Sequence record: MZ311861.1
DNA length: 39,091 nt
Strand: one strand, 5' to 3'
Origin: Escherichia phage vB_EcoP_LNA5
Made by a program: the position numbers and the translations under genes. This document shows, piece by piece, positions 4,760 to 36,020 of this stretch (position 1 is its first letter; the number at the start of each line of letters is the position of its first letter). The notes beneath the pieces are model-generated. The model ran no database searches and was not told the DNA's origin. It was given only the letters and a program-made list of their open reading frames with translations.

Positions 4760-6463
<1,704 letters not shown>

Positions 6464-9887: not shown

Positions 9888-9924
9888 CAAAGCAAAGAAA
9901 CCCAGCAGTCCGAAGACCACTGGG
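9888..9924 (-). terminator. intrinsic terminator after the ligase gene (T7 TE position)
   Basis: Minus strand CCCAGTGGTC-TTCG-GACTGCTGGG (10-bp stem with two G.U pairs, UUCG loop) followed by TTTCTTTGCTTTG; sits 12 bp past the ligase stop. Confidence 0.7.
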
Positions 9925-9935
9925 TTGACGTTTAG

Positions 9936-11012
9936 TTAACTCTTAACGGTTGGGTTATCTTCCGTTCCACGCCAGCACTTGAAGCTAGGGTGACGAAGGG
10001 ATCCATCTGGGAACCGCTCCATGAAGAGGACTTCACACTGCCATCCTTCGTACGGATTGATTCCACCGAGAATATATGTATCAGTGTTACAGGCTTCCGT
10101 AAACTCATCCTTCTGTTCTTCAGTCAGACCACAAGCATTAACCACCATGCCATCCTCAAGCAGAACCTCAAAGCCAATCACCTTACCTTCGTTAGCCTTG
10201 CCCGTAGTCCCCCACACGAGGCCACACACGGTCCCGTCGATGGTCTCCTCAGGCTTCATTTTCCACATGCCTGACTTCTTGCCGCGCTTGTATTTACCCA
10301 GTGGGTCCTTGACTACCAGACCCTCATGTCCTTCCAGACGCTTCTGTTCGTACAGGGAGTTGAGCGACTCAAGGTCATAGACCGTGTGTGACTCAGACAG
10401 AACCCAGTCGATTTCAGGGAAGTATTTCTGGAGGAGAGGGACGATAGCTTCGGCCTTCAGGCGGGTTACGCTATGGATAGGACCTTCTGCTTTCGGGTCA
10501 AGTATGACGTTAAGGTCCACGATACCGTAGACCACCACGCGGATGTGGTCGGTTGCCAGATGGAAAGGGACCTTATGCTTCTTCTTGGTGTCGATGTCAG
10601 CATCTGGGTTGCCATTCCAAGCGTAGTTCTTAGTGTCTGACCACATGGTACGGATTAGACCTGAGGAAGTGTTGAAGTCGGTTGCAGGAACCATTACCTC
10701 ACCGTCAATCATCAGGCCAGTGCCTTCGTAGCCAGCTTGCTTCAGGAACCACCGCCAGTCGCTAGCCCTCTGTTGATCTTCCACGATGTTGTCGATGTTG
10801 GTCAGGACTGATAGCCAGCTCAGTGCCGGAAGAGGTTTAGACTCCCGGCTCAACCATTTGGCCTCACCAGTAGGGAAGACCGGGATGTTTATACGCACAC
10901 CGTCATACTTCACTTCAGCTTCGAGCGACCCGGCAGCTGCCAGTGCTTTCGTAACTCCTGACTCAGAGTAATCTACAGCGCGGTGCGGGTTAGTTTTAAT
11001 AGTCGTAGTCAT
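9936..11012 (-). CDS. ATP-dependent DNA ligase gp1.3
   Basis: Recalled collinear similarity to T7 ligase (IKTNP..AV, EIKYDGVR, ..MIDGE.., ..EGHEGL.VKDP...YKRGKKSG.WKMKPE.., ..GSLRHPSF...RGTEDNP); TAATG overlap with 1.2. Confidence 0.95.
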   Translation of the reverse strand: MTTTIKTNPHRAVDYSESGVTKALAAAGSLEAEVKYDGVRINIPVFPTGEAKWLSRESKPLPALSWLSVLTNIDNIVEDQQRASDWRWFLKQAGYEGTGLMIDGEVMVPATDFNTSSGLIRTMWSDTKNYAWNGNPDADIDTKKKHKVPFHLATDHIRVVVYGIVDLNVILDPKAEGPIHSVTRLKAEAIVPLLQKYFPEIDWVLSESHTVYDLESLNSLYEQKRLEGHEGLVVKDPLGKYKRGKKSGMWKMKPEETIDGTVCGLVWGTTGKANEGKVIGFEVLLEDGMVVNACGLTEEQKDEFTEACNTDTYILGGINPYEGWQCEVLFMERFPDGSLRHPSFKCWRGTEDNPTVKS

Positions 11013-11263
11013 TATTTCCAGCTCCTATAATCGTTCAATTGTTGTAAGCACCATTGCTCACAGCTAAAGATTTCATCTTCGGTAAATTCTCTGGATACCA
11101 GAAGCCTCCCACCATCTGCTTCAATTACTCTGACCAGAGTTTTTCCGTGGCACGGCGAGTAATCCATTAGGACATCAAGTCCTGCCTCACTCATCTCGCG
11201 GTGAGTCCGGCCTAACGCTGACCACTGGCTCGTGGATGCGTCGAATAACCAACGTTTACTCAT
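11012..11263 (-). CDS. gp1.2-like protein (dGTPase inhibitor family by position)
   Basis: 83-aa ORF with C-terminal pattern ..CEQWCLQQLNDYRSWK resembling recalled T7 gp1.2 ..CTDWLNHMYDQLKDWK; AGGAG upstream. Confidence 0.6.
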   Translation of the reverse strand: MSKRWLFDASTSQWSALGRTHREMSEAGLDVLMDYSPCHGKTLVRVIEADGGRLLVSREFTEDEIFSCEQWCLQQLNDYRSWK

Positions 11264-11274
11264 GGCTTACGCTC

Positions 11275-11448
11275 CTATGAAATACTTCTCTCGGTTGACC
11301 AGAGAGAGTCTTTGCCCTCAGCGTTACGGAAAGCACCCTTGACACCACCGCCACGCTTGGTCTTGTTCAGCTTGCGGCCCTTCGGAATGTAGTCTTCAGT
11401 CTGCTGACGTTCACGGATTCGCTCGAAGTTGATAGTGTTCTGATACAT
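11275..11448 (-). CDS. gp1.1-like small basic protein (57 aa)
   Basis: Hand-translated: MYQNTINFERIRERQQTEDYIPKGRKLNKTKRGGG..; GRKLNKTKR matches recalled T7 gp1.1; AGGAG upstream; below the track cutoff. Confidence 0.65.
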   Translation of the reverse strand: MYQNTINFERIRERQQTEDYIPKGRKLNKTKRGGGVKGAFRNAEGKDSLWSTERSIS

Positions 11449-11478
11449 GGTGTAGCTCCTGATTGAATGAGTTAGGGT

Positions 11479-11520
11479 TAATCATGAAGGCCACGACTTT
11501 GAGTCATGACCTTGAGTCTA
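11479..11520 (-). promoter_or_regulatory. RNase III-like processing hairpin, class A (R1.1 position)
   Basis: TAGACTCAAGGTCATGACTCAAAGTCGTGGCCTTCATGATTAA on the minus strand; lies between the phi1.1-position promoter and gene 1.1, as recalled for T7. Confidence 0.6.
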
Positions 11521-11522
11521 AT

Positions 11523-11540
11523 CCTATAGTGATAGTTTAG
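11523..11540 (-). promoter_or_regulatory. phage RNAP promoter (phi1.1 position)
   Basis: cctatagtgatagtttag exact consensus. Confidence 0.85.
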
Positions 11541-11541
11541 G

Positions 11542-11619
11542 TTAACCTCTTCTGCGTGGGATTAAAGTGAATAATGCGAGTGCTCCCAGCCACAAGGCCA
11601 GTAACTGTAGGTCTGTCAT
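11542..11619 (-). CDS. possible 25-aa hydrophobic micropeptide
   Basis: ATG overlaps the stop of the upstream ORF (ATGA); MTDLQLLALWLGALALFTLIPRRRG is a single TM-like helix with a basic tail. Very short; could be chance. Confidence 0.25.
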   Translation of the reverse strand: MTDLQLLALWLGALALFTLIPRRRG

Positions 11620-11831
11620 TTGGTCTGCTCCAGCTTGGTCACTGCGTCTTTCAGGTATTTCTCGTGGCTGGATTCCACAAGATAGACGAGTGTCTTGAAT
11701 GGGACGTTAAGCTGCTTTGACATCTCTGTAGGGATGACCGTGGTCTTCACCAGACCCTTGCCGTTGTGTTCTGTTACGGTCACGATTTGAGTCCCGCCCT
11801 TAACGCCAGACTGCTTGTGTGCAAATTTCAT
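11616..11831 (-). CDS. hypothetical protein (71 aa)
   Basis: AAGGAG upstream of ATG; tightly packed after the upstream ORF; no counterpart recalled between gene 1 and phi1.1 in T7. Confidence 0.6.
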   Translation of the reverse strand: MKFAHKQSGVKGGTQIVTVTEHNGKGLVKTTVIPTEMSKQLNVPFKTLVYLVESSHEKYLKDAVTKLEQTK

Positions 11832-11841
11832 AACTCTCTCC

Positions 11842-12072
11842 TTATTTAATCATAGGGAATGATGGATACTGAGTGCGCTCGTCTTCCATCCACGCGTTAA
11901 GCACTTCATCAATCGAAGCTATAAGGTTGTACTCGTTAGGTTGAATCCACCCAGTCACACCCTCTTGTAATCTGTCTCGGAGAATGACTAAATCCCTATA
12001 AGTCAGCTCTACATGGCAACGTCCCGACCCATCGTTGTATGTCCTGTTGTGTGCTACAAGTTTCATTGACAT
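11842..12072 (-). CDS. hypothetical protein (76 aa)
   Basis: AGGAGGAG 7 nt upstream of ATG, starting 15 nt after the RNAP stop; no recognisable motif. Confidence 0.6.
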   Translation of the reverse strand: MSMKLVAHNRTYNDGSGRCHVELTYRDLVILRDRLQEGVTGWIQPNEYNLIASIDEVLNAWMEDERTQYPSFPMIK

Positions 12073-12087
12073 ATACTTCTCCTCCTG

Positions 12088-14769
12088 TTAAGCGAATGCA
12101 AAGTCTGAAGACAAGATGTCTTCGATATTTAGTTTACCTTTCTTCGGAAGCTCAGGCAACTTGTCGCGCTGACTTTCATGAAGCTGGTATTCAAACTGCT
12201 CGTAGAAGTCAAGCAGCACATCGTTATCGCGGTAAGTCTCTACCATCGTCTCACGGACTCCACGGAACAGATACTCAGCGTCAGCCGGGATGGTCCCGAA
12301 GCTATCGTGAATCACTGCGAATGACATCACGCCATACTTTCGGTTAGTGTGGACTACAGTCTTGCGGAGGTGGCTACCATCTTGTGAGTGGACGAAGTTC
12401 GGGCTAATGCCTGACTCCTGCTTGTGCTTGTCCAGCTCTTTCTTCGTGCCTTTGTTGACGGTAGGCTGAAGGTTGAATGACCCTAAGAACATCAGGTTCA
12501 GACGAGTGGTGTCCTTCTTGCGGTATTCCTGCCAGACAGGGAAACCATCAGGTGTGACCCAGTGTACCGGAAGGCAAGGCTTCAGGATTTCTCCAGTCTT
12601 CTTGTCCTTCACCTCAGCAGCCAGCAGCTTGGCAGCACCTTGAAGCCACTTCATCGCGTCAACCGCAGCAACTACTGTCACACTCACAGCTTCCCAAATC
12701 ATCTTTGCCATGAAGCGAGACGCTTGGCTTGGTTCAGTGAACATAGCGCCAGACCCTGAGTCAATCGCTGGCATCACGATGTCCTCGTAAACTTGGTCTG
12801 CGAAGCCGTACTCTTTCGACCCGTATGCCAGAGTCATGACTGAACGCTTAGTGACCTTGCGTGACATACCGTATGTCAGCCACTGACGGGCCAGCTCTCG
12901 TGTCCCCAGCTTGATACGTTCGGTAATCTCACCAGTTTTCTTATCCTCGTGAGTGACCATCTCGTTGTCAGTGCCGTTAATCAGCAGTACTTTAAGCTGC
13001 TCCTCAATGCGGTCAGACACAATGCGGTAGATGTCTTGTACCTTACCGGATGGCGTCAGGTTTACTGCATGTCCACCGATGTGGTCACGAAGCATAGCGC
13101 TGAAGTGCTGAATCCCAGAGCAGGACCCATCGAACGCTATCGGCAGCGAGCAGGAGTAAGACAAGCCGTGGTGCATTACGCCAGCATACTCGAAGCAGAA
13201 CGCTAGGAAGCAGAACGGAGAGTCTAACTTGCCCCACCACTCAATGCTATCCATCGGTGCCTTGGCAGCAGCCATGATGTTGTCGTGGTTATCTTCCACC
13301 CACTTGATACGCTCCTCGAAGGTGACTTTATCGACACCCGCGCAGTTTGCACCGTGGACCTTCAGCCATTTGAAACCATCAGCACCAATAGGCTTACCGA
13401 CTGCCAGAGTCAGAAGACCCTTTTGCATGTCGTTACCCTGAGGGTTGAACATCGGCACAGCGTAGACGCGACCGCGCCAGTCCATGTTATACGGGAACCA
13501 GATGGCCTTGAACTGAGAGAACTTGTTCGCTTGGTTGACGATAAAGCTCAGTGACAATCTTCGTGACTGTCTGGCCTTCTCGCGGCGATAGATACCAGCA
13601 GCAGCCTTCTTCCATGCCTTGAGTTCTTCTTCAGTCTCACCCGCATAGTCCTCAGGCTTCAGCGGTTCCATCTGAGGGAGGTCATCAATAGGCGTGTTGT
13701 TCAGCTTCTCGACCTTGTTCACCACGTCCAATACCTTCTTGTTCACTTTCCAAGGTGTATTCTGGATGATATTCACAGCGTCATAGACTTCAGGCATGTA
13801 TACGTCTTCATAACGTGCTACCGCAGACTTAGACCCTAAGCGAATCAATGGTAACGGTCTGCGACCTTTGGCCCAGTACCCACCACCTACGACACCAGTC
13901 CACGGCTTAGGTGGAACGACGCAAGGCTGGTAGACTGGGGCGATACCCGCAAGGCTGAATCCTCGTTGTGCCATCTTCTTGACCCAGAAGTCTGACAGGT
14001 GGACCATCTCTACGTCAGCCGCTGCATTACCAGCACCGTACCGCTTAAGCTCGACCAGTTGTGTTGACTGGATGACAATCTCGAGCATCTTGATGCCAAC
14101 GTGGACGGCCTCTGTAGGACTCCAAGTCCCCCACGCATCTTCCAGTTGGCCTTGCTCCAGCATGGACGCCTCGACCGCTTGCATGTAGGCTTTCTTGTAT
14201 GACGCCCCGGCCCGCTTATTCAGGTTATCAGCTATCGCCTTCTTGAAGTGCTCTTTCTCTTTGTCACGGATGCGACCGAAGCGGATTTCGTCCTCAAGTG
14301 TGCGACCTATCGCTGAGGCCATAGGTGTAATCGGGATCCCTTCAGGCTTGACCAGCTTGGAGAGTATGACCTTCAGTACGATAACCGCAGCAGACTCACA
14401 GGAGATGCGCAGAGATCGTTCCTTTACGGCCTTCTCTTCAGTGCTCAACATGGTGAACGCTACACTCGGACGAGAGGTTGACAGCTTCCCGTCTTGGCCT
14501 TCGTGCCACTCCCTGACGGCTTGCGCAATCTTAGGGACCAGAGTCTGCATCAAAGGCTTGGCGACCTGATTGTCTGCCAGTTCCCCGCGCTCGGTCTGGC
14601 GCTCAAGGTTCTTGATGAAACGTCGCTCGCCTTCTGTATATGCCTCATGCTCAAGCTGAAGCTGTTTGACTGCAAGGTCTTGCCCGTAGTGGTCGGCCAG
14701 CAGGTTAAACGGCTCAATGGCGTTCGACACATCAGAGAAGTCGTGTTTGTCAATAGAGATGACGCTCAT
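12088..14769 (-). CDS. single-subunit DNA-directed RNA polymerase gp1
   Basis: 893-aa ORF collinear with recalled T7 RNA polymerase (..IPFNTLADHYG.., ..WFPYNMDWRGRVYAV.MFNPQGNDM.KGLLTLA.GKPIG.., ..HDSFGTIPADA.., C-terminal ..SDFAFA). Specificity-loop region reads ..QPTVNKGTKKELDKHKQESG.. versus recalled T7 ..QPTINTNKDSEIDAHKQESG... Confidence 0.98.
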   Translation of the reverse strand: MSVISIDKHDFSDVSNAIEPFNLLADHYGQDLAVKQLQLEHEAYTEGERRFIKNLERQTERGELADNQVAKPLMQTLVPKIAQAVREWHEGQDGKLSTSRPSVAFTMLSTEEKAVKERSLRISCESAAVIVLKVILSKLVKPEGIPITPMASAIGRTLEDEIRFGRIRDKEKEHFKKAIADNLNKRAGASYKKAYMQAVEASMLEQGQLEDAWGTWSPTEAVHVGIKMLEIVIQSTQLVELKRYGAGNAAADVEMVHLSDFWVKKMAQRGFSLAGIAPVYQPCVVPPKPWTGVVGGGYWAKGRRPLPLIRLGSKSAVARYEDVYMPEVYDAVNIIQNTPWKVNKKVLDVVNKVEKLNNTPIDDLPQMEPLKPEDYAGETEEELKAWKKAAAGIYRREKARQSRRLSLSFIVNQANKFSQFKAIWFPYNMDWRGRVYAVPMFNPQGNDMQKGLLTLAVGKPIGADGFKWLKVHGANCAGVDKVTFEERIKWVEDNHDNIMAAAKAPMDSIEWWGKLDSPFCFLAFCFEYAGVMHHGLSYSCSLPIAFDGSCSGIQHFSAMLRDHIGGHAVNLTPSGKVQDIYRIVSDRIEEQLKVLLINGTDNEMVTHEDKKTGEITERIKLGTRELARQWLTYGMSRKVTKRSVMTLAYGSKEYGFADQVYEDIVMPAIDSGSGAMFTEPSQASRFMAKMIWEAVSVTVVAAVDAMKWLQGAAKLLAAEVKDKKTGEILKPCLPVHWVTPDGFPVWQEYRKKDTTRLNLMFLGSFNLQPTVNKGTKKELDKHKQESGISPNFVHSQDGSHLRKTVVHTNRKYGVMSFAVIHDSFGTIPADAEYLFRGVRETMVETYRDNDVLLDFYEQFEYQLHESQRDKLPELPKKGKLNIEDILSSDFAFA

Positions 14770-14789
14770 ACTTAAAGTCCTTGTTATTA

Positions 14790-14830
14790 GTCTTTCACTT
14801 AAAGTCTCTTTGGTCTTTCACTTGGAGTCT
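14790..14830 (-). repeat. two 18-bp direct repeats in the RNAP 5' leader
   Basis: gtctttcacttaaagtct (14790..14807) and gtctttcacttggagtct (14813..14830), 16/18 identical, between the upstream phage promoter and the RNAP start. Confidence 0.6.
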
Positions 14831-14842
14831 TAGACCTTTAGT

Positions 14843-14860
14843 CCTATAGTGATAGTTAAG
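14843..14860 (-). promoter_or_regulatory. phage RNAP promoter immediately upstream of the RNAP gene
   Basis: cctatagtgatagttaag; about 75 bp upstream of the gene 1 ATG. Confidence 0.8.
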
Positions 14861-14866
14861 TCAGAA

Positions 14867-15193
14867 TCACTTGCATATCAGTGGGTTAGCGTGAAGATGA
14901 CTGAAGTCACCATGAGTCGTGTGCTTGATGGTTGACCGTTGGTCTATCGCCTTCCAGCCTGAGACTAAAAGTTTACCATCGTCAGTGATTGGTCGTCCAC
15001 CATACACCAGACACATCAGCTCGGACTTATGTCCCTCAGCCCGGAGTCTTGCTTGCAGTACCCGGTCCCGCTCCTGCTGTTGACGTGCGGAGTGACTTGA
15101 CGTTCCGTGACGATACCCGGTAGCCAGTAGGCTTAACATTTGCATGTCTGCGTCCATAGAGTGTACCAGATTAATCCCGTATGACTTGTTCAT
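14867..15193 (-). CDS. hypothetical early protein (108 aa)
   Basis: ATG overlaps the upstream ORF stop (TAATG); GGGAG upstream; no motif recognised; occupies the position where T7 has gene 0.7, but is not kinase-like. Confidence 0.55.
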   Translation of the reverse strand: MNKSYGINLVHSMDADMQMLSLLATGYRHGTSSHSARQQQERDRVLQARLRAEGHKSELMCLVYGGRPITDDGKLLVSGWKAIDQRSTIKHTTHGDFSHLHANPLICK

Positions 15194-15396
15194 TACAGTT
15201 TGCTCCCAAGTGTTGCTATATCCCAGACGTTCGCTAAGTTACGCATGAATCGTCCGTTAGGTTGACGTACAGTCCAGCTACCCAGACGTACATATTTGAA
15301 TTTGTAGACTTTACGCGCTTTGTTGATGTCTCTCACCAGCACGTAGGCGATAAGTCCATAGCCTATGGCTATCAATAGTGTGATACTCATAGTCAT
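15193..15396 (-). CDS. small membrane protein (67 aa), start uncertain
   Basis: Track ORF begins at GTG 15567 without a ribosome-binding site; an internal ATG at 15396 overlaps the stop of an upstream micro-ORF (ATGA) and yields MTMSITLLIAIGYGLIAYVLV.. with one predicted TM helix. Confidence 0.35.
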   Translation of the reverse strand: MTMSITLLIAIGYGLIAYVLVRDINKARKVYKFKYVRLGSWTVRQPNGRFMRNLANVWDIATLGSKL

Positions 15397-15497
15397 AAGC
15401 CCCATAACAGTTGAGTAAGGACCGGTAGTTTGCAGACTAGAGTAAACATTCCCCACGCTACGAAGCCTGAGATAGTCCAGATGATTGCAGTGCTCAT
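15393..15497 (-). CDS. possible 34-aa hydrophobic micropeptide
   Basis: AGGAG 7-8 nt upstream of ATG; MSTAIIWTISGFVAWGMFTLVCKLPVLTQLLWGL; translationally coupled to the downstream ORF. Confidence 0.3.
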   Translation of the reverse strand: MSTAIIWTISGFVAWGMFTLVCKLPVLTQLLWGL

Positions 15498-15629
15498 AGT
15501 TAACTCCTATCAATGTAAGTGGTAATCTTTGAGGCCACCTATCAGTCGATGACCTCTCGTCTATCACTCAGTACCATCACGTCAGTGTTATGGTCAAGCT
15601 ATGATTTGGTTCTCTCCTGTTTATTTAGG

Positions 15630-15857
15630 TTACTCGCCGTCTCCTTCTGTAAGGCTATCGTCTATTAATTCAAATTTACCGTTTGAGTGTTGGATAGCCT
15701 CTTGTCCGCAATGGTCGCAAACCACCAGTTTATCGAACCCGTCAAACTCGTCACCTGCTACGCAAGAAAGTACGAATTTATGATTGGTGCATACTTCTTG
15801 CGTTTCACCGAAAATTGCTCGAAAACCTTTGGTTATGGCACCAGTGATTGTGTTCAT
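15630..15857 (-). CDS. Cys-rich small protein (75 aa), possible zinc ribbon
   Basis: GAGGG upstream of ATG; paired Cys motifs (C..C, then CDHC) and an acidic C-terminus; sits downstream of an RNase III-like hairpin. Confidence 0.55.
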   Translation of the reverse strand: MNTITGAITKGFRAIFGETQEVCTNHKFVLSCVAGDEFDGFDKLVVCDHCGQEAIQHSNGKFELIDDSLTEGDGE

Positions 15858-15871
15858 ATCTTCCCTCTCAG

Positions 15872-15928
15872 TTGTTAATGACTATCAGTCAGGCCACCAG
15901 CATTGATGACCTGTAGTCTGTCACTTAG
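15872..15928 (-). promoter_or_regulatory. RNase III-like processing hairpin, class B
   Basis: Shares the gttaGtgactatcagtcaggcc...cctgtagt motif with 16602..16660 and 16919..16983; forms a long imperfect hairpin, as recalled for T7 R1. Confidence 0.5.
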
Positions 15929-16070
15929 CGTGTAAACTGTCGTGTATACGCTTGCGTCTCCTGTAGACCACTTTCAAGAGACGCATAGCCCAATCGTGGT
16001 CTAACTGCCCGGTCTTGACCATAAGCCGGGCGTTAGTGACGTGGTGCTGGCAGAGGCCATAAGTTACCAT
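15921..16070 (-). CDS. gp0.4-like small protein (49 aa)
   Basis: ATG overlaps the Ocr stop (TGATG), as 0.4 does with 0.3 in T7; MVTYGLCQHHVTNARLMVKTGQLDHDWAMRLLKVVYRRRKRIHDSLHAK shares the YGL..W..AM..L pattern with recalled T7 gp0.4. Confidence 0.45.
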   Translation of the reverse strand: MVTYGLCQHHVTNARLMVKTGQLDHDWAMRLLKVVYRRRKRIHDSLHAK

Positions 16071-16573
16071 CACTCGCAGTCCTCAGCCGCAGGGTCGAAC
16101 ACTACGTTATCATTGATGTCTTCCACCTTCAGGTGGCGACCTGCCGCATAGTTAACATTGGCACATGCAGTAGCGACCTCAAGAGCTACAGCTTGCACAA
16201 TTATTGCGCCTGTTTTAGCGTCAACTACCCAATATTCATCCTCTTCGTCTGCCTCTTCATCCTCAAACCAGACTACATCCAAGCTATTAGACACGTCGTT
16301 ATAAAGTGCCTCATAGATGCGAGCTTGTAGGATACGCGTTACGTCCTTGGTTTCAGGTATCATCCCAGAGTCTTCGAACTCGTTGTCTATACCATCAGCA
16401 GCCATCACCGTAAAAATCTCGTGGTAATAGTGTGGAACCTGACCGTCTACGACCTCATGCAGCGCAGCGCTGTAGTCGTCATCTTGAGTCAGGTGGTCGT
16501 ACTGAATACGCTCGATAAATGCCTCAACGGTTGCAGCCAGCAACTCATAGTATGCGTTAGCATTACGTTCCAT
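16070..16573 (-). CDS. ocr: Ocr-like DNA-mimic anti-restriction protein (gene 0.3) with about 50-aa C-terminal extension
   Basis: Residues 1-115 match recalled T7 Ocr (..VPHYY..IF.VMA..GID.EFEDSG..P.TKDV.RILQARIYE..); the ORF then continues past the acidic tail (..DEEADEEDEY) for about 50 more residues; GAGG upstream of ATG. Confidence 0.85.
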   Translation of the reverse strand: MERNANAYYELLAATVEAFIERIQYDHLTQDDDYSAALHEVVDGQVPHYYHEIFTVMAADGIDNEFEDSGMIPETKDVTRILQARIYEALYNDVSNSLDVVWFEDEEADEEDEYWVVDAKTGAIIVQAVALEVATACANVNYAAGRHLKVEDINDNVVFDPAAEDCE

Positions 16574-16601
16574 AGTTATATCCTCTCAAAGTTAATTATG
16601 T

Positions 16602-16660
16602 GTTAGTGACTATCAGTCAGGCCGCTATCAGTCTAACGACCTGTAGTTAATCACTCTCAG
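16602..16660 (-). promoter_or_regulatory. RNase III-like processing hairpin, class B
   Basis: gttagtgactatcagtcaggcc..cctgtagttaatcac: 7-bp outer stem plus CAGG/CCUG inner stem with internal loop; lies between the first early ORF and ocr. Confidence 0.5.
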
Positions 16661-16902
16661 TTAGTGAAATAAGGAGCTGAGACGCCCACTGTAGGACTCA
16701 CGGTTATCTGCGAGTCTATCAGGTATGTCTCGTTGTCTATACGCACAGTATCGACGCTGTAGTTGCTGAACTGCTTGCTTGATACCTTGCGCACTACCAC
16801 ACGGTGACGCGCTCCTGTCATCTCTTTAAGCTGAATCCACGCATAACCTTTAGTGTTCACGAATACTTCATTGCGATTAGTGATTGTGCTTAAGTGTTTC
16901 AT
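16657..16902 (-). CDS. first early gene: hypothetical protein (81 aa)
   Basis: ATG at 16902 with AAGGA 9 nt upstream (track ATG at 16911 has no spacing); first ORF downstream of the host-type promoter and RNase III-like hairpin; no motif recognised. Confidence 0.5.
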   Translation of the reverse strand: MKHLSTITNRNEVFVNTKGYAWIQLKEMTGARHRVVVRKVSSKQFSNYSVDTVRIDNETYLIDSQITVSPTVGVSAPYFTN

Positions 16903-16918
16903 AGTGTCCATCCTTTAA

Positions 16919-16983
16919 GTTAGTGACTATCAGTCAGGGCCTTTGAGTCTACATCTGAAGGCCCTGTAGTTAGTCGCTATCGG
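16919..16983 (-). promoter_or_regulatory. RNase III-like processing hairpin, class B (R0.3 position)
   Basis: agtgactatcagtcagggcc-(18-nt loop)-ggccctgtagttagtcgct, a long imperfect inverted repeat. Confidence 0.5.
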
Positions 16984-17088
16984 CGCACATTAAGAGTTTA
17001 TCCAGATTGTTAAAGAGCATTCCCTTCAGTCAGAGGACTTCAGGTAGACCATTCAGTGTTGGTCATCACCGTTGTTTCGATGTGGTAC

Positions 17089-17118
17089 ATATTACTTTAA
17101 GTCGTTACTGCCTGTCAA
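17089..17118 (-). promoter_or_regulatory. host sigma70-type early promoter
   Basis: Minus strand TTGACA-GGCAGTAACGACTTAAAG-TAATAT (18-bp spacer); resembles the recalled T7 A3 promoter; first gene follows about 190 bp downstream. Confidence 0.6.
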
Positions 17119-17370
17119 CTACTTTCTGTCGGTTGCCTGTTGTTCGTATGTCTTACAGGCTGACTACTTAACCGGACCGGACCGGCGTCTTCACTATCCG
17201 GTTGTTGCCGTGTCGTGTTGACGGAAGCTATTAGGCCATAGTCTGGACCTATAGTCAATAGGTAATTTGAAATAATATTGATTAAGCTATCGTCGGCCCC
17301 ATGGTGTAAGAGGATATAGTCTTTGACTAACATGTCTTAGACCTTAAGTCTATAGCCTTGTGTCTATTAA

Positions 17371-17491
17371 CTGTAGGTCTATGACTGTAGGTGTTGGTGT
17401 CTTATGGTTGAGACTGTAGGTTAGTGAGACTGTAGGTTATGACTTATGGTTGTGAGAGGTAGGCTGTGACCTATGGTTGTGACTTATGGTT
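17371..17491. repeat. array of short direct repeats in the genome-terminal region
   Basis: Plus-strand (g)actgtaggt four times and (ga)cttatggtt four times; on the phage strand ACCTACAGT / AACCATAAG, resembling the recalled T7 CCTAAAG repeats near the terminal repetition. Confidence 0.6.
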
Positions 17492-17718
17492 ATACAGATA
17501 GAGACTCAAAGAAGACCCATAGTCCCAACCTATCGTCCTTCCCTAAGCCATAGCCTCAGCCTATCGTTGACCTTAAGTCTTGACCATCTGTCCAACCTTA
17601 TGATAGACTGGCACGGGTAGGGCCTTTGGTCTGGACTGAAAGAGGGCCTATGGGGAGACTTGAGGTTCTTGAAGTGTGAGATGTGGTCTCAAACTTTTGG
17701 TCCAAAACTCATCGTCAC

Positions 17719-17760
17719 TACTGTAGGCCACAGCCACTGTAGGTCAAGGACCGTAGGTCA
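17719..17760. repeat. second cluster of CTGTAGG-type short repeats
   Basis: actgtaggcc, actgtaggtc, ccgtaggtca within 42 bp. Confidence 0.5.
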
Positions 17761-17918
17761 GGCGACACTAGGATAGACCAATAAGTAGGATGACCCTAAG
17801 TGAGCTTCTATTAAGGTGTTACCTAAAGTCCTTGACTACAGTAGCTAAGGTCAGTAGAGTAGCGTCAGCTATGAACTGACCTTAGGTCTTGCTTTCGTTG
17901 ATTGTTACCATTACGGCG

Positions 17919-18077
17919 TTAATTACACTGAGAGACCAGAGAACATACGAGAGTCTCGACCCACCCGACCCACTGACTTCCAGCAGTAGCGCCAGCAGCA
18001 AGTAGAACAGCAGCAAGAAACCTGTATGTAGCTCGATTGGTCGCCAGAGCTTTAAGTACAGCTTTGGTCTTTGCCAT
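17919..18077 (-). CDS. gp19.5-like small protein (52 aa)
   Basis: AGGAGG about 10 nt upstream of ATG; downstream of the phi-OR-position promoter, as gene 19.5 is in T7; hydrophobic segment FLAAVLLAAGATAG. Confidence 0.4.
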   Translation of the reverse strand: MAKTKAVLKALATNRATYRFLAAVLLAAGATAGSQWVGWVETLVCSLVSQCN

Positions 18078-18260
18078 ATGCTACATACCTCCTGTATCTA
18101 TGGTCGGTGACTATCTGTATTGGAGGGATTATGATTAATATCACCCTCCTTCCATCGGTGCAAGCCTTAGGTAAGAACTCGAAGTCTTCCTCCTAAGGTC
18201 TTGCATAAAGTCTGCATATGTATATTCACTACAGTAATACTATAAGTAACCGGGGGTCTT

Positions 18261-34874: not shown

Positions 34875-35896
34875 AGTGCGCCTGCTGCTTCTGGACGCAG
34901 ACCACCGTGACCCATAGCGTACTTACCAACAATCAGGTCGCCCTGAGCATCGACGTCACGGTCACGTTCCAGCGCCAAGTCACGCAGCTTAACAGTACCT
35001 ACAGCAGAACGGTGAGAGAACAGGCCCACAACGTTGTCCAGAGCAACTTTAACATCACCAGTAGCAGTAGCTGGGAAGGCGTGCTTCTGACCAGTCGCAA
35101 TAGTGATACCATCGGCACCACGAGTTTCCCCAGCACCACCCTGAGTCAAGTGTGGAACTTCAACAACCACGAAGCCCATTACGTTACGGATGTTACCAGT
35201 CTCTGGGTCAATCAGCGCAGCATAGTTAGCAGCGTTCGGCATCAGAGCCGCGAGGATTGCAGAGTAGTTGTCCGGCGTGGTGTAGAAGTAACGGTCGCCA
35301 GCAGGAACGTAGTTGGATGTCAGCTTCGCACGAGCAATGGTCAGTTGACCGATGATTGCTTCACCCAGCTTAGCCGGAGTGTTCAGGTCTGCTTTAGTAC
35401 CAACTTCCAGCACAGACGCTTTGCCAAGACCAGCGATGTTTTCATCAGATGCAGCCGGTAGGTTACACAGAATAGCCATCTCAGCCAGTACCGCACCATC
35501 GGCAGCGATAGCCAGAGCTTCGCCCAACTGGTTGGAGTACTCGCCAGCCACGTCATAGTGGTTCATCGCGTCTTCAATGTCGAAAATCATCACATCGGCA
35601 GTCAGCAGACCATCAATGGTAATCACTTTCTCGGTATGTTTGATACCTTTACGCTTATCGGACAGTCGCTCACCCGGAGCCAGATACACCCCAGAGGTGC
35701 GTCCCATGACCGGGAACTGAGCAGACTTACCGTTCTGAATGGTACGGACAATATGCTTGTCAGCAGTTACAGAGCGGCGAGTGAATGCGGTCAGGACTTC
35801 ACCAGCAAAGACCTTCAGGAACAACGCCAGAGCGTCGGAACCAGATTTGCCTTTACCTTGGTCTGTACCAACTTTCTGACCCGGAACGTTTGCCAT
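34847..35896 (-). CDS. major capsid protein gp10A
   Basis: Recalled collinear similarity to T7 gp10A (..GTDQGKG.., ..LALFLKVF.GEVLTAF.R.SVT.., ..KSAQFPV.GRT...YLAPGE.L.DKRK.IKHTEKVITIDGLLTADV.I.DIEDAMNHYDV.., ..KYAMGHGGLRPEAAGA.VF); AGGAG 9 nt upstream. Confidence 0.97.
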   Translation of the reverse strand: MANVPGQKVGTDQGKGKSGSDALALFLKVFAGEVLTAFTRRSVTADKHIVRTIQNGKSAQFPVMGRTSGVYLAPGERLSDKRKGIKHTEKVITIDGLLTADVMIFDIEDAMNHYDVAGEYSNQLGEALAIAADGAVLAEMAILCNLPAASDENIAGLGKASVLEVGTKADLNTPAKLGEAIIGQLTIARAKLTSNYVPAGDRYFYTTPDNYSAILAALMPNAANYAALIDPETGNIRNVMGFVVVEVPHLTQGGAGETRGADGITIATGQKHAFPATATGDVKVALDNVVGLFSHRSAVGTVKLRDLALERDRDVDAQGDLIVGKYAMGHGGLRPEAAGALVFTAASAG

Positions 35897-36001
35897 ATGA
35901 TAATTCTCCTATTCAATTGAAAGATAAAGTTTATTACTTACTGTACGCCCAATCCGTATGGACTGAAGTAATAGGGAAACCTTGAGTCTTTCTCTTGGTC
36001 T

Positions 36002-36020
36002 CCCTATAGTGATAGTTTAG
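36002..36020 (-). promoter_or_regulatory. phage RNAP promoter (phi10 position)
   Basis: ccctatagtgatagtttag, about 105 bp upstream of the capsid ATG. Confidence 0.85.

Follow-up and report, generated by a model that had tools for sequence, protein, structure and literature searches.

The primary replication origin of phage T7 is formed by the promoters phi1.1A and phi1.1B, and no T7 origin can do without a phage promoter (PMC8373140). In the T7 sequence record, the end of gene 1 (position 5822) is followed by phi1.1A at 5848, phi1.1B at 5923 and the start of gene 1.1 at 6007; just 26 nucleotides (nt), with no gene among them, separate the gene 1 stop codon from phi1.1A. In the T3 record, phi1.05 follows gene 1, and between phi1.05 and gene 1.1 come, in this order, an annotated primary origin, gene 1.05, phi1.1 and the R1.1 RNase III site. 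Herein we examine the equivalent interval of Escherichia phage vB_EcoP_LNA5 (MZ311861.1), whose complete genome of 39,091 nt, hereafter called the window, is of the Kayfunavirus type (K1F-like, a T7 relative in the Studiervirinae) and carries all of its long open reading frames (ORFs) on the minus strand. The spacer that measures 26 nt in T7 is filled here by three ORFs of 76, 71 and 25 amino acids (ORF76, ORF71 and ORF25). We consider it likely, with good confidence, that these ORFs are genuine genes (small, early, protein-coding and characteristic of Kayfunavirus) rather than origin DNA.

Small genes downstream of the RNA polymerase gene

A sequence-only reading of this DNA had pointed to the same three frames between the RNA polymerase gene and a phi1.1 promoter, and the ORF list reproduces their coordinates exactly: ORF76 at 11842-12072, ORF71 at 11616-11831, and ORF25 (MTDLQLLALWLGALALFTLIPRRRG) at 11542-11619, all on the minus strand. 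The strong ribosome-binding sites claimed for the two larger frames were also found. Specifically, the Shine-Dalgarno sequence AGGAGGAG precedes the ATG of ORF76 by approximately 7 nt, and AAGGAGAGAG precedes that of ORF71 by approximately 4 nt. The start codon of ORF25 overlaps the TGA stop codon of ORF71 (ATGA), with GGAG located 8 nt upstream. Gene 1 itself (12088-14769, minus strand) encodes a T7-type single-subunit RNA polymerase of 893 amino acids in the ORF list, and it carries the RNA polymerase annotation in relatives whose DNA is 92-98% identical.

An 801-nt query spanning the ORF interval retrieved 216 phage records with 80-98% DNA identity, of which IME177 is the closest (98.1%), and the matched records that were opened are classified as Kayfunavirus. 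The interval was read in 32 related loci from IMG/VR and GenBank, giving 33 sequences with the window included. Over the related loci the gene order is RNA polymerase gene, ORF76 (where present), ORF71, ORF25, gp1.05 (where present), promoter, hairpin, and gp1.15. Homology searches, which the sequence-only reading had proposed along with a comparison of synteny, find ORF71 in 219 phage records, ORF76 in 39 of these (tblastn), and the DNA of ORF25 in 219 (blastn, at least 80% query coverage), a number equal to that for ORF71. Relative to T7, the three ORFs are indeed additions as that reading had suggested, yet they were already known in relatives.

The length of an ORF alone is no proof of coding, and the ORF list of the window has many spurious frames of 50-120 amino acids elsewhere. 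Selection was evaluated by pooled ratios of non-synonymous to synonymous divergence (pN/pS) and by parsimony counts of synonymous and non-synonymous changes on neighbor-joining trees, compared with a neutral non-synonymous fraction of 0.72-0.78. ORF71 has pN/pS values of 0.14-0.16 and synonymous/non-synonymous counts of 69/41 and 181/110. The corresponding values are 0.26-0.28 and 50/26 (P=7e-12) for ORF25, and 0.37 and 71/74 (P=1.5e-12) for ORF76. All parsimony counts fall far under the neutral expectation (P from 1e-12 to 1e-44). On the basis of this constraint, we judge ORF76, ORF71 and ORF25 to be genes.

ORF71 is a core gene of Kayfunavirus. Its location after gene 1 is preserved in 33 of 33 sequences, and its homologs form 158 protein clusters, mostly from contigs of approximately 39-40 kb. 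The protein is basic (isoelectric point, pI, 9.65) and matches the PHROG 8082 profile with an E value of 5.1e-42, residues 1-66 aligning to positions 1-66 of 66. The K1F protein called gp1.1 is 90% identical, and its gene has the same location, being the core gene that comes next behind the RNA polymerase gene. Homologs carry the name gp1.1 in K1F and Dev2 and 1.05 in CR44b. Family members occur in 71- and 66-residue forms with diverged C-terminal helices, and their N-terminal 47 residues are almost invariant. The AlphaFold2 model has a predicted local distance difference test score (pLDDT) of 77 and the arrangement beta1-beta2-beta3-alpha1-alpha2-alpha3, in which the strands and first two helices are confident and the last helix is weak. 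A Foldseek search of BFVD with this model returned nothing at E<=0.001. An AbrB/MazE-like identity, prompted by the motif 'VIPTEMSKQLNV', was dropped since ORF71 has no Pfam match and its model, in which helices follow a beta-meander, lacks a swapped hairpin.

The K1F name for ORF71 is misleading. When evaluated against the T7 gene 1.1 family (PF08200) at the gathering score, ORF71 yields no Pfam match, and it is the next gene, which bears the name gp1.15 in K1F, that belongs to this family. The designation "gp1.1" in K1F is therefore positional only, and the true T7 gene 1.1 homolog is gp1.15, a distinction that is useful for annotation.

ORF76, in contrast to ORF71, is a narrowly distributed accessory gene found in a subset of E. 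coli Kayfunaviruses (39 records versus 219), and K1F lacks it. The protein is mildly acidic (pI 5.2) and matches PHROG 28104 over residues 1-76 of 76 (E 7.2e-53). In all 8 sequences where it was read (the window and loci L001, L002, L003, L005, L008, L025 and L026), it sits between gene 1 and ORF71. It was already annotated in EcoDS1, ASO2B and IME177; the EcoDS1 ORF of 'unknown product' (ACF15786.1) is 88% identical and fills the same slot between gene 1 and the K1F gp1.1 homolog. Only 9 clusters represent ORF76 among 5.8e9 proteins, and an exhaustive phmmer search of 1.84e9 representatives uncovered 5 real relatives, all of approximately 75-86 residues; two long proteins that matched with E values of 1e-4 to 8e-4 were dismissed as spurious. 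When the most distant relative (P0132) was used as the tblastn query, the same 39 phage records were recovered and no others. The AlphaFold2 model of ORF76 is poor (pLDDT 64), and a structural search with it gave no meaningful fold match, only generic helical hairpins.

ORF71 and ORF76 are ordinary genus-typical genes that have long been annotated as hypothetical. The sequence-only reading had considered that all of the ORFs might be conserved and annotated in close relatives with a known function. Conservation and annotation are borne out, but function is not, as homologs of ORF76, ORF71 and ORF25 are all labeled hypothetical in annotated records. Pfam searches gave zero matches for the three proteins at E<=1, sequence profiles from the PDB gave none below E 0.3 for the ORF76 and ORF71 families, and a relaxed-threshold Rfam search of positions 10900-12300 gave chance-level matches only. 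A literature search found no functional study of ORF76, ORF71 or ORF25. For the two larger ORFs, our analysis adds only their accessory (ORF76) or core (ORF71) status, with no recognizable fold. In the records SHAK7854 and SHAK9454, features under the ORFs of this interval carry the label 'similar to nucleotide kinase', apparently an artifact of annotation.

A conserved frame of 25 codons

In 33 of 33 sequences, those that lack the gp1.05 gene among them, ORF25 is intact and has a constant length of 25 codons. The start codon is ATG in 32 of the 33 and GTG in the remaining one, where the upstream stop codon is still overlapped. Its evolutionary pattern is that of a protein. Its own frame has a pN/pS value of 0.29, whereas the two alternative sense frames give 1.25 and 0.99, and the ORF25 frame is free of stops in 25 of the 25 sequences used for this comparison. 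Variable columns number 8, 8 and 16 at codon positions 1, 2 and 3, and with a pS of 0.30 ORF25 equals ORF71 in synonymous divergence, which indicates constraint on the protein rather than on the DNA. Genus-wide conservation of a mostly unannotated peptide of 25 residues is modestly new, as is the finding that the K1F name gp1.1 misleads.

The peptide comprises a single hydrophobic helix of 17 residues (4-20) between an N-terminal MTD and a C-terminal RRRG, although one variant ends in RRSG. Its grand average of hydropathy is 0.79, with 15-residue hydropathy values of up to 2.5. Replacements in the core mostly stay hydrophobic (for example L/W, G/A, A/F, V/I/L, F/Y/L and T/I). These features suggest that ORF25 may encode a peptide that crosses the membrane once, its N-terminus facing outwards. 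In size, single helix and charged end it resembles small membrane peptides such as the type I toxins TisB, ShoB and Ibs, and the small regulators AcrZ and MgtS. Unlike these peptides, ORF25 showed no sequence relationship to anything outside Kayfunavirus in DNA pattern scans, and it belongs to a lytic phage, in whose early operon it lies.

Gene-calling programs nearly always miss ORF25, and two of its common variants are missing from a collection of 15 billion proteins. Among the records found, only that of phage GA2A annotates it as a coding sequence. The GA2A product gp10 (YP_009324944.1), a hypothetical protein of 25 residues, shares the length, the ATGA overlap and the RRRG end, but represents a different allele (MTDLKWLALWLAFLAVYTLIQRRRG). 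A degenerate DNA pattern for ORF25 gave 20 matches in IMG/VR, all on contigs of approximately 39-40 kb, and 0 matches in 185,579 bacterial and archaeal genomes. Several GenBank records, among them MZ234024.1 (L025, 382-498) and PV615262.1 (L026, 379-495), annotate instead an other-frame ORF of 38 amino acids that runs through the promoter. Coding constraint was not seen for this wrong-frame ORF. We also considered a programmed frameshift that would fuse ORF71 to ORF25, and rejected it because there is no slippery heptamer and the sequence preceding the overlap varies (accaaATGA, acgaaATGA, gaacaATGA, aagaaATGA). For the annotation and engineering of K1F-type therapeutic phages, it is useful to know that a conserved gene of 25 codons for a predicted membrane peptide is missing from most records or has its place taken by the wrong-frame ORF of 38 amino acids.

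The immediate downstream neighborhood of ORF25 is variable. Approximately half of the relatives (L001, L007-L009 and L014-L022) carry gp1.05, a gene for a protein of 156-160 amino acids (PHROG 8103), between ORF25 and the promoter. Both the ORF list and the locus comparison indicate that the gp1.05 gene is not present in the window. Here the deletion joint at 11541-11545 brings the stop codon of ORF25 right up to promoter position -17. The gp1.05 proteins of T3 and EcoDS1 are related to each other (34% identity over 77 residues, E 2e-9). When compared with these two proteins by phmmer, ORF76 and ORF71 gave negative-score matches only, and ORF25 gave none.

Expression, possible roles and competing explanations

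All three ORFs fall within the early transcription unit, after gene 1 and before the early terminator TE (9899-9926, minus strand). TE was identified by a terminator scan as a stem of 12 base pairs (bp) followed by a T-run just past the ligase gene, and a terminator is annotated at the equivalent position in EcoDS1 and ASO2B. The transcription unit of the host polymerase (class I), to which the ORFs belong, ends at TE. Scans of the 15-nt spacer between gene 1 and ORF76 revealed neither a terminator-like site on the gene strand nor a promoter. Approximately 75 nt upstream of gene 1 is the phage promoter sequence TTAACTATCACTATAGG (14843-14859, minus strand), which has 1 mismatch to the core and falls where a 'phi' promoter is annotated in EcoDS1. 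No other phage promoter can drive ORF76, ORF71 and ORF25 along with gene 1. T7 is not known to have a promoter at this place. The placement implies that gene 1 and the small ORFs behind it are under positive feedback.

We are highly confident in this gene and expression anatomy. Under the proposed scheme, ORF76, ORF71 and ORF25 would be distal cistrons of the gene 1 mRNA, whose synthesis would begin with host RNA polymerase and pass later to the phage enzyme, acting from the promoter ahead of gene 1. Cleavage by RNase III at the R1.1 site downstream of the phi1.1-like promoter would set the 3′ end of this mRNA. Translation of ORF25 would be coupled to that of ORF71 by termination and reinitiation at the ATGA overlap, and the resulting peptide would insert into the inner membrane, its N-terminus facing outwards and its RRRG tail remaining on the cytoplasmic side.

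Most class I products of T7, such as Ocr, gp0.4, gp0.7 and gp1.2, serve in host takeover or counter-defense. By analogy, the three ORFs might act in the same manner, but we hold this assignment of functional class only tentatively. ORF76 would be strain-specific and probably a counter-defense element, which fits its patchy distribution and higher pN/pS. ORF71 and ORF25 may pair as a soluble protein and a membrane peptide. An extension of this idea, which we regard as speculative and rather improbable, is that ORF71, as a soluble basic protein of beta3-alpha3 type, and its coupled ORF25, as a single-pass peptide of the inner membrane, constitute a two-part early host-takeover module, specific to Kayfunavirus, that acts on a membrane-associated host target; a defense system, a protease or the division machinery would be possible targets. 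If true, a phage group that has been studied in depth would harbor, in ORF25, a universally conserved microprotein that annotations nearly always overlook.

Several observations weigh against parts of this interpretation. No fold or family of known function was found for any of the three proteins by Pfam, PDB profile or structure searches, and a role in host takeover or counter-defense is thus suggested by position, size and distribution only. The hydrophobic stretch of ORF25, at 17 residues, is short for a membrane span. Furthermore, the 3′ end of ORF25 (AGAAGAGG) is also the Shine-Dalgarno sequence of gp1.05 where that gene is present, and it adjoins the promoter, such that part of the conservation may not concern the peptide. 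Finally, alleles of ORF25 do not co-segregate with those of ORF71. The DNA of ORF25 is 95-97% identical even beside ORF71 alleles that share only about 45% amino acid identity. This independence indicates recombination between the two genes and weakens the case for an obligate pair.

Some of these same facts invite other explanations of the interval. It could be non-coding origin or regulatory DNA in which the ORFs are chance frames, because the primary origins of T7 and T3 lie between gene 1 and gene 1.1, and random ORFs of similar size are common in the window. We find this scarcely credible given the strong frame-specific purifying selection, the Shine-Dalgarno sites and the PHROG families. 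In addition, the interval has a GC content of approximately 45-55% with no AT-rich block, and most relatives, including K1F, simply lack ORF76 without any replacement, which is the behavior of dispensable DNA and not of an origin. A different possibility concerns ORF25 only, which might be a short relay frame whose non-functional peptide is made while ribosomes pass from ORF71 towards gp1.05, the sequence being kept for its Shine-Dalgarno and promoter-flank content. The last codons of ORF25 (AGA AGA GGT TAA) lie 4-8 nt before the gp1.05 ATG and provide its sole Shine-Dalgarno sequence, and where gp1.05 is absent the stop codon borders directly on promoter position -17. Neglect by gene callers and the absence of two common variants from the collection of 15 billion proteins also suit a relay, and the near-identical ORF25 DNA beside diverged ORF71 alleles is explained equally well by a recombination block and by selection. 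Nevertheless, we judge a relay to be unlikely. Purifying selection is confined to the ORF25 frame, pS at the ORF71 level leaves no sign of nucleotide-level constraint, variability is concentrated at third codon positions, core replacements mostly conserve hydrophobicity, and all 25 codons remain intact where there is no gp1.05 to be served.

For ORF71, an alternative to a membrane-linked partner role is that of a host RNA polymerase-binding regulator like P7 of phage Xp10, which would replace the T7 gp0.7-type shut-off function in this genus. P7 has the topology beta1-beta4-alpha1 (PMC3985653). This differs from the ORF71 model, and the resemblance is therefore only a lead and not a match; a P7-like fold (beta1-beta2-beta3-beta4-alpha1) together with a significant structural match was not obtained for ORF71. 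We consider this identity very unlikely. As a separate observation, the largest ORF in the early region at 14867-18260 encodes 167 amino acids, and none is as big as the T7 gp0.7 kinase/shut-off protein. The early region of K1F likewise has small genes only, from 0.1 to 0.38.

Promoter, hairpin and neighboring genes

The phi1.1 promoter named by the sequence-only reading is real. The phage RNA polymerase promoter CCTAAACTATCACTATAGGATTA (11519-11541, minus strand) contains an exact match to the core, TAAACTATCACTATAGG at 11523-11539, which is 1 of 11 matches in the window, versus 0.07 expected by chance. The promoter is annotated in the ASO2B and EcoDS1 records and fits the K1F consensus. As judged by alignment with T7 and T3, it is the homolog, in position and sequence, of T7 phi1.1A and T3 phi1.1.

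Downstream of the promoter is a hairpin with a conserved 3′ flank (11476-11513, minus strand), whose 12-bp stem occupies 11487-11513. The predicted folding energy is -16.1 kcal/mol (z -3.6), and 0 of 200 shuffled sequences were as stable. The block ACTcAAGGTCAT...GTGGCCTT.ATGATT.ACC is invariant in the window, K1F, T7 and the annotated R1.1 site of T3. Conserved and located directly 3′ of the phi1.1(A) start site, the hairpin is a strong candidate for an R1.1 RNase III site. The 'terminator' label given to it in ASO2B was rejected because the hairpin has no U-tract and is homologous to R1.1. In the window, T7 and T3 alike, the promoter is followed directly by an RNase III-type hairpin, before the gene 1.1 homolog.

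The sequence-only reading had placed the ORFs in the interval that holds the T7 origin. This does not hold, since the ORFs lie upstream of the phi1.1A-R1.1 homolog, whereas T7 phi1.1B and its AT-rich block lie downstream. That reading was correct in offering a differing origin architecture, at least at the sequence level, where one promoter stands in place of two and the AT-rich block is lacking. Specifically, the window has no phi1.1B, and the only promoter match between 9850 and 14843 aligns with phi1.1A. Unlike T3, the window also lacks a promoter directly after gene 1 (phi1.05) and the origin that accompanies it. The AT-rich, origin-like sequence that might have been expected near phi1.1 was not found: the 74 nt from the promoter to gp1.15 have an AT content of 57%, and the richest 60-nt stretch reaches 62%. 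The corresponding values are 71% (maximum 78%) for the AT-rich block of T7 after phi1.1B and 77% for the annotated T3 origin.

Thus, of the features of a T7-type primary origin, neither tandem promoters nor an AT-rich block downstream of the promoter is present, and the phage promoter, the element essential to all T7 origins, is found at the phi1.1A position. The window keeps the phi1.1A/R1.1 module without the AT-rich origin element of T7 and T3. Because the phi1.1B/AT-rich portion of T7 and the phi1.05 origin of T3 are both missing, the origin of Kayfunavirus cannot be derived by analogy. This point is useful for the annotation and engineering of K1F-type phages, as is the corrected naming of gp1.1 and gp1.15.

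None of the most AT-rich 60-mers of the genome follows a phi1.1-like promoter. Three of them do lie just downstream of other phage promoters, at 35886-35945 (73%, after the phi10-like promoter at 36003-36019), 759-818 (70%, after the phi6.5-like promoter at 811-827), and 14752-14811 (68%, after the promoter upstream of gene 1). In T7, phi6.5 is a known secondary origin, and an origin phi10 is also referred to (PMC8373140).

The first gene after the promoter, gp1.15 (11275-11448, minus strand), matches PF08200 (Phage_1_1) with an E value of 1.2e-10 and 42.1 bits versus a cut-off of 21. Alignment with relatives reveals a 2-nt expansion of a CT repeat in this gene at 11300-11310 (gactctctctgg versus gactctctgg). 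The expansion shifts the frame of the last 10 or so codons, yielding a product of 57 residues ending in LWSTERSIS rather than one of 59 ending in LVNQEKYFVGA. This could be either a real variant or a sequencing error.

One related locus departs from the common arrangement. In Enterobacter phage 04_vB_Eclo_IJM (OP272493.1; L029, approximately 1398-1660), the promoter and R1.1 hairpin are missing, and gp1.15 begins 2 nt past the ORF25 stop codon (ggttaaccATG). The RNA polymerase gene in this record is fragmented, and the quality of the assembly is doubtful.

Between gp1.15 and the ligase gene, the gene 1.2 slot (11012-11263, minus strand) was compared among the window and loci L002, L005, L008, L014 and L017. 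It holds at least 5 apparently unrelated alleles across these relatives, with products of 83 (MSKRWLFDAS..), 87 (MGRLYSGNLNAF..), 95 (MGMFSRAHSGNL..), 86/91 (MNHYELKDFAK..) and 75 (MFEGSLTDQ..) amino acids. Such cassette-like hypervariability is typical of counter-defense loci.

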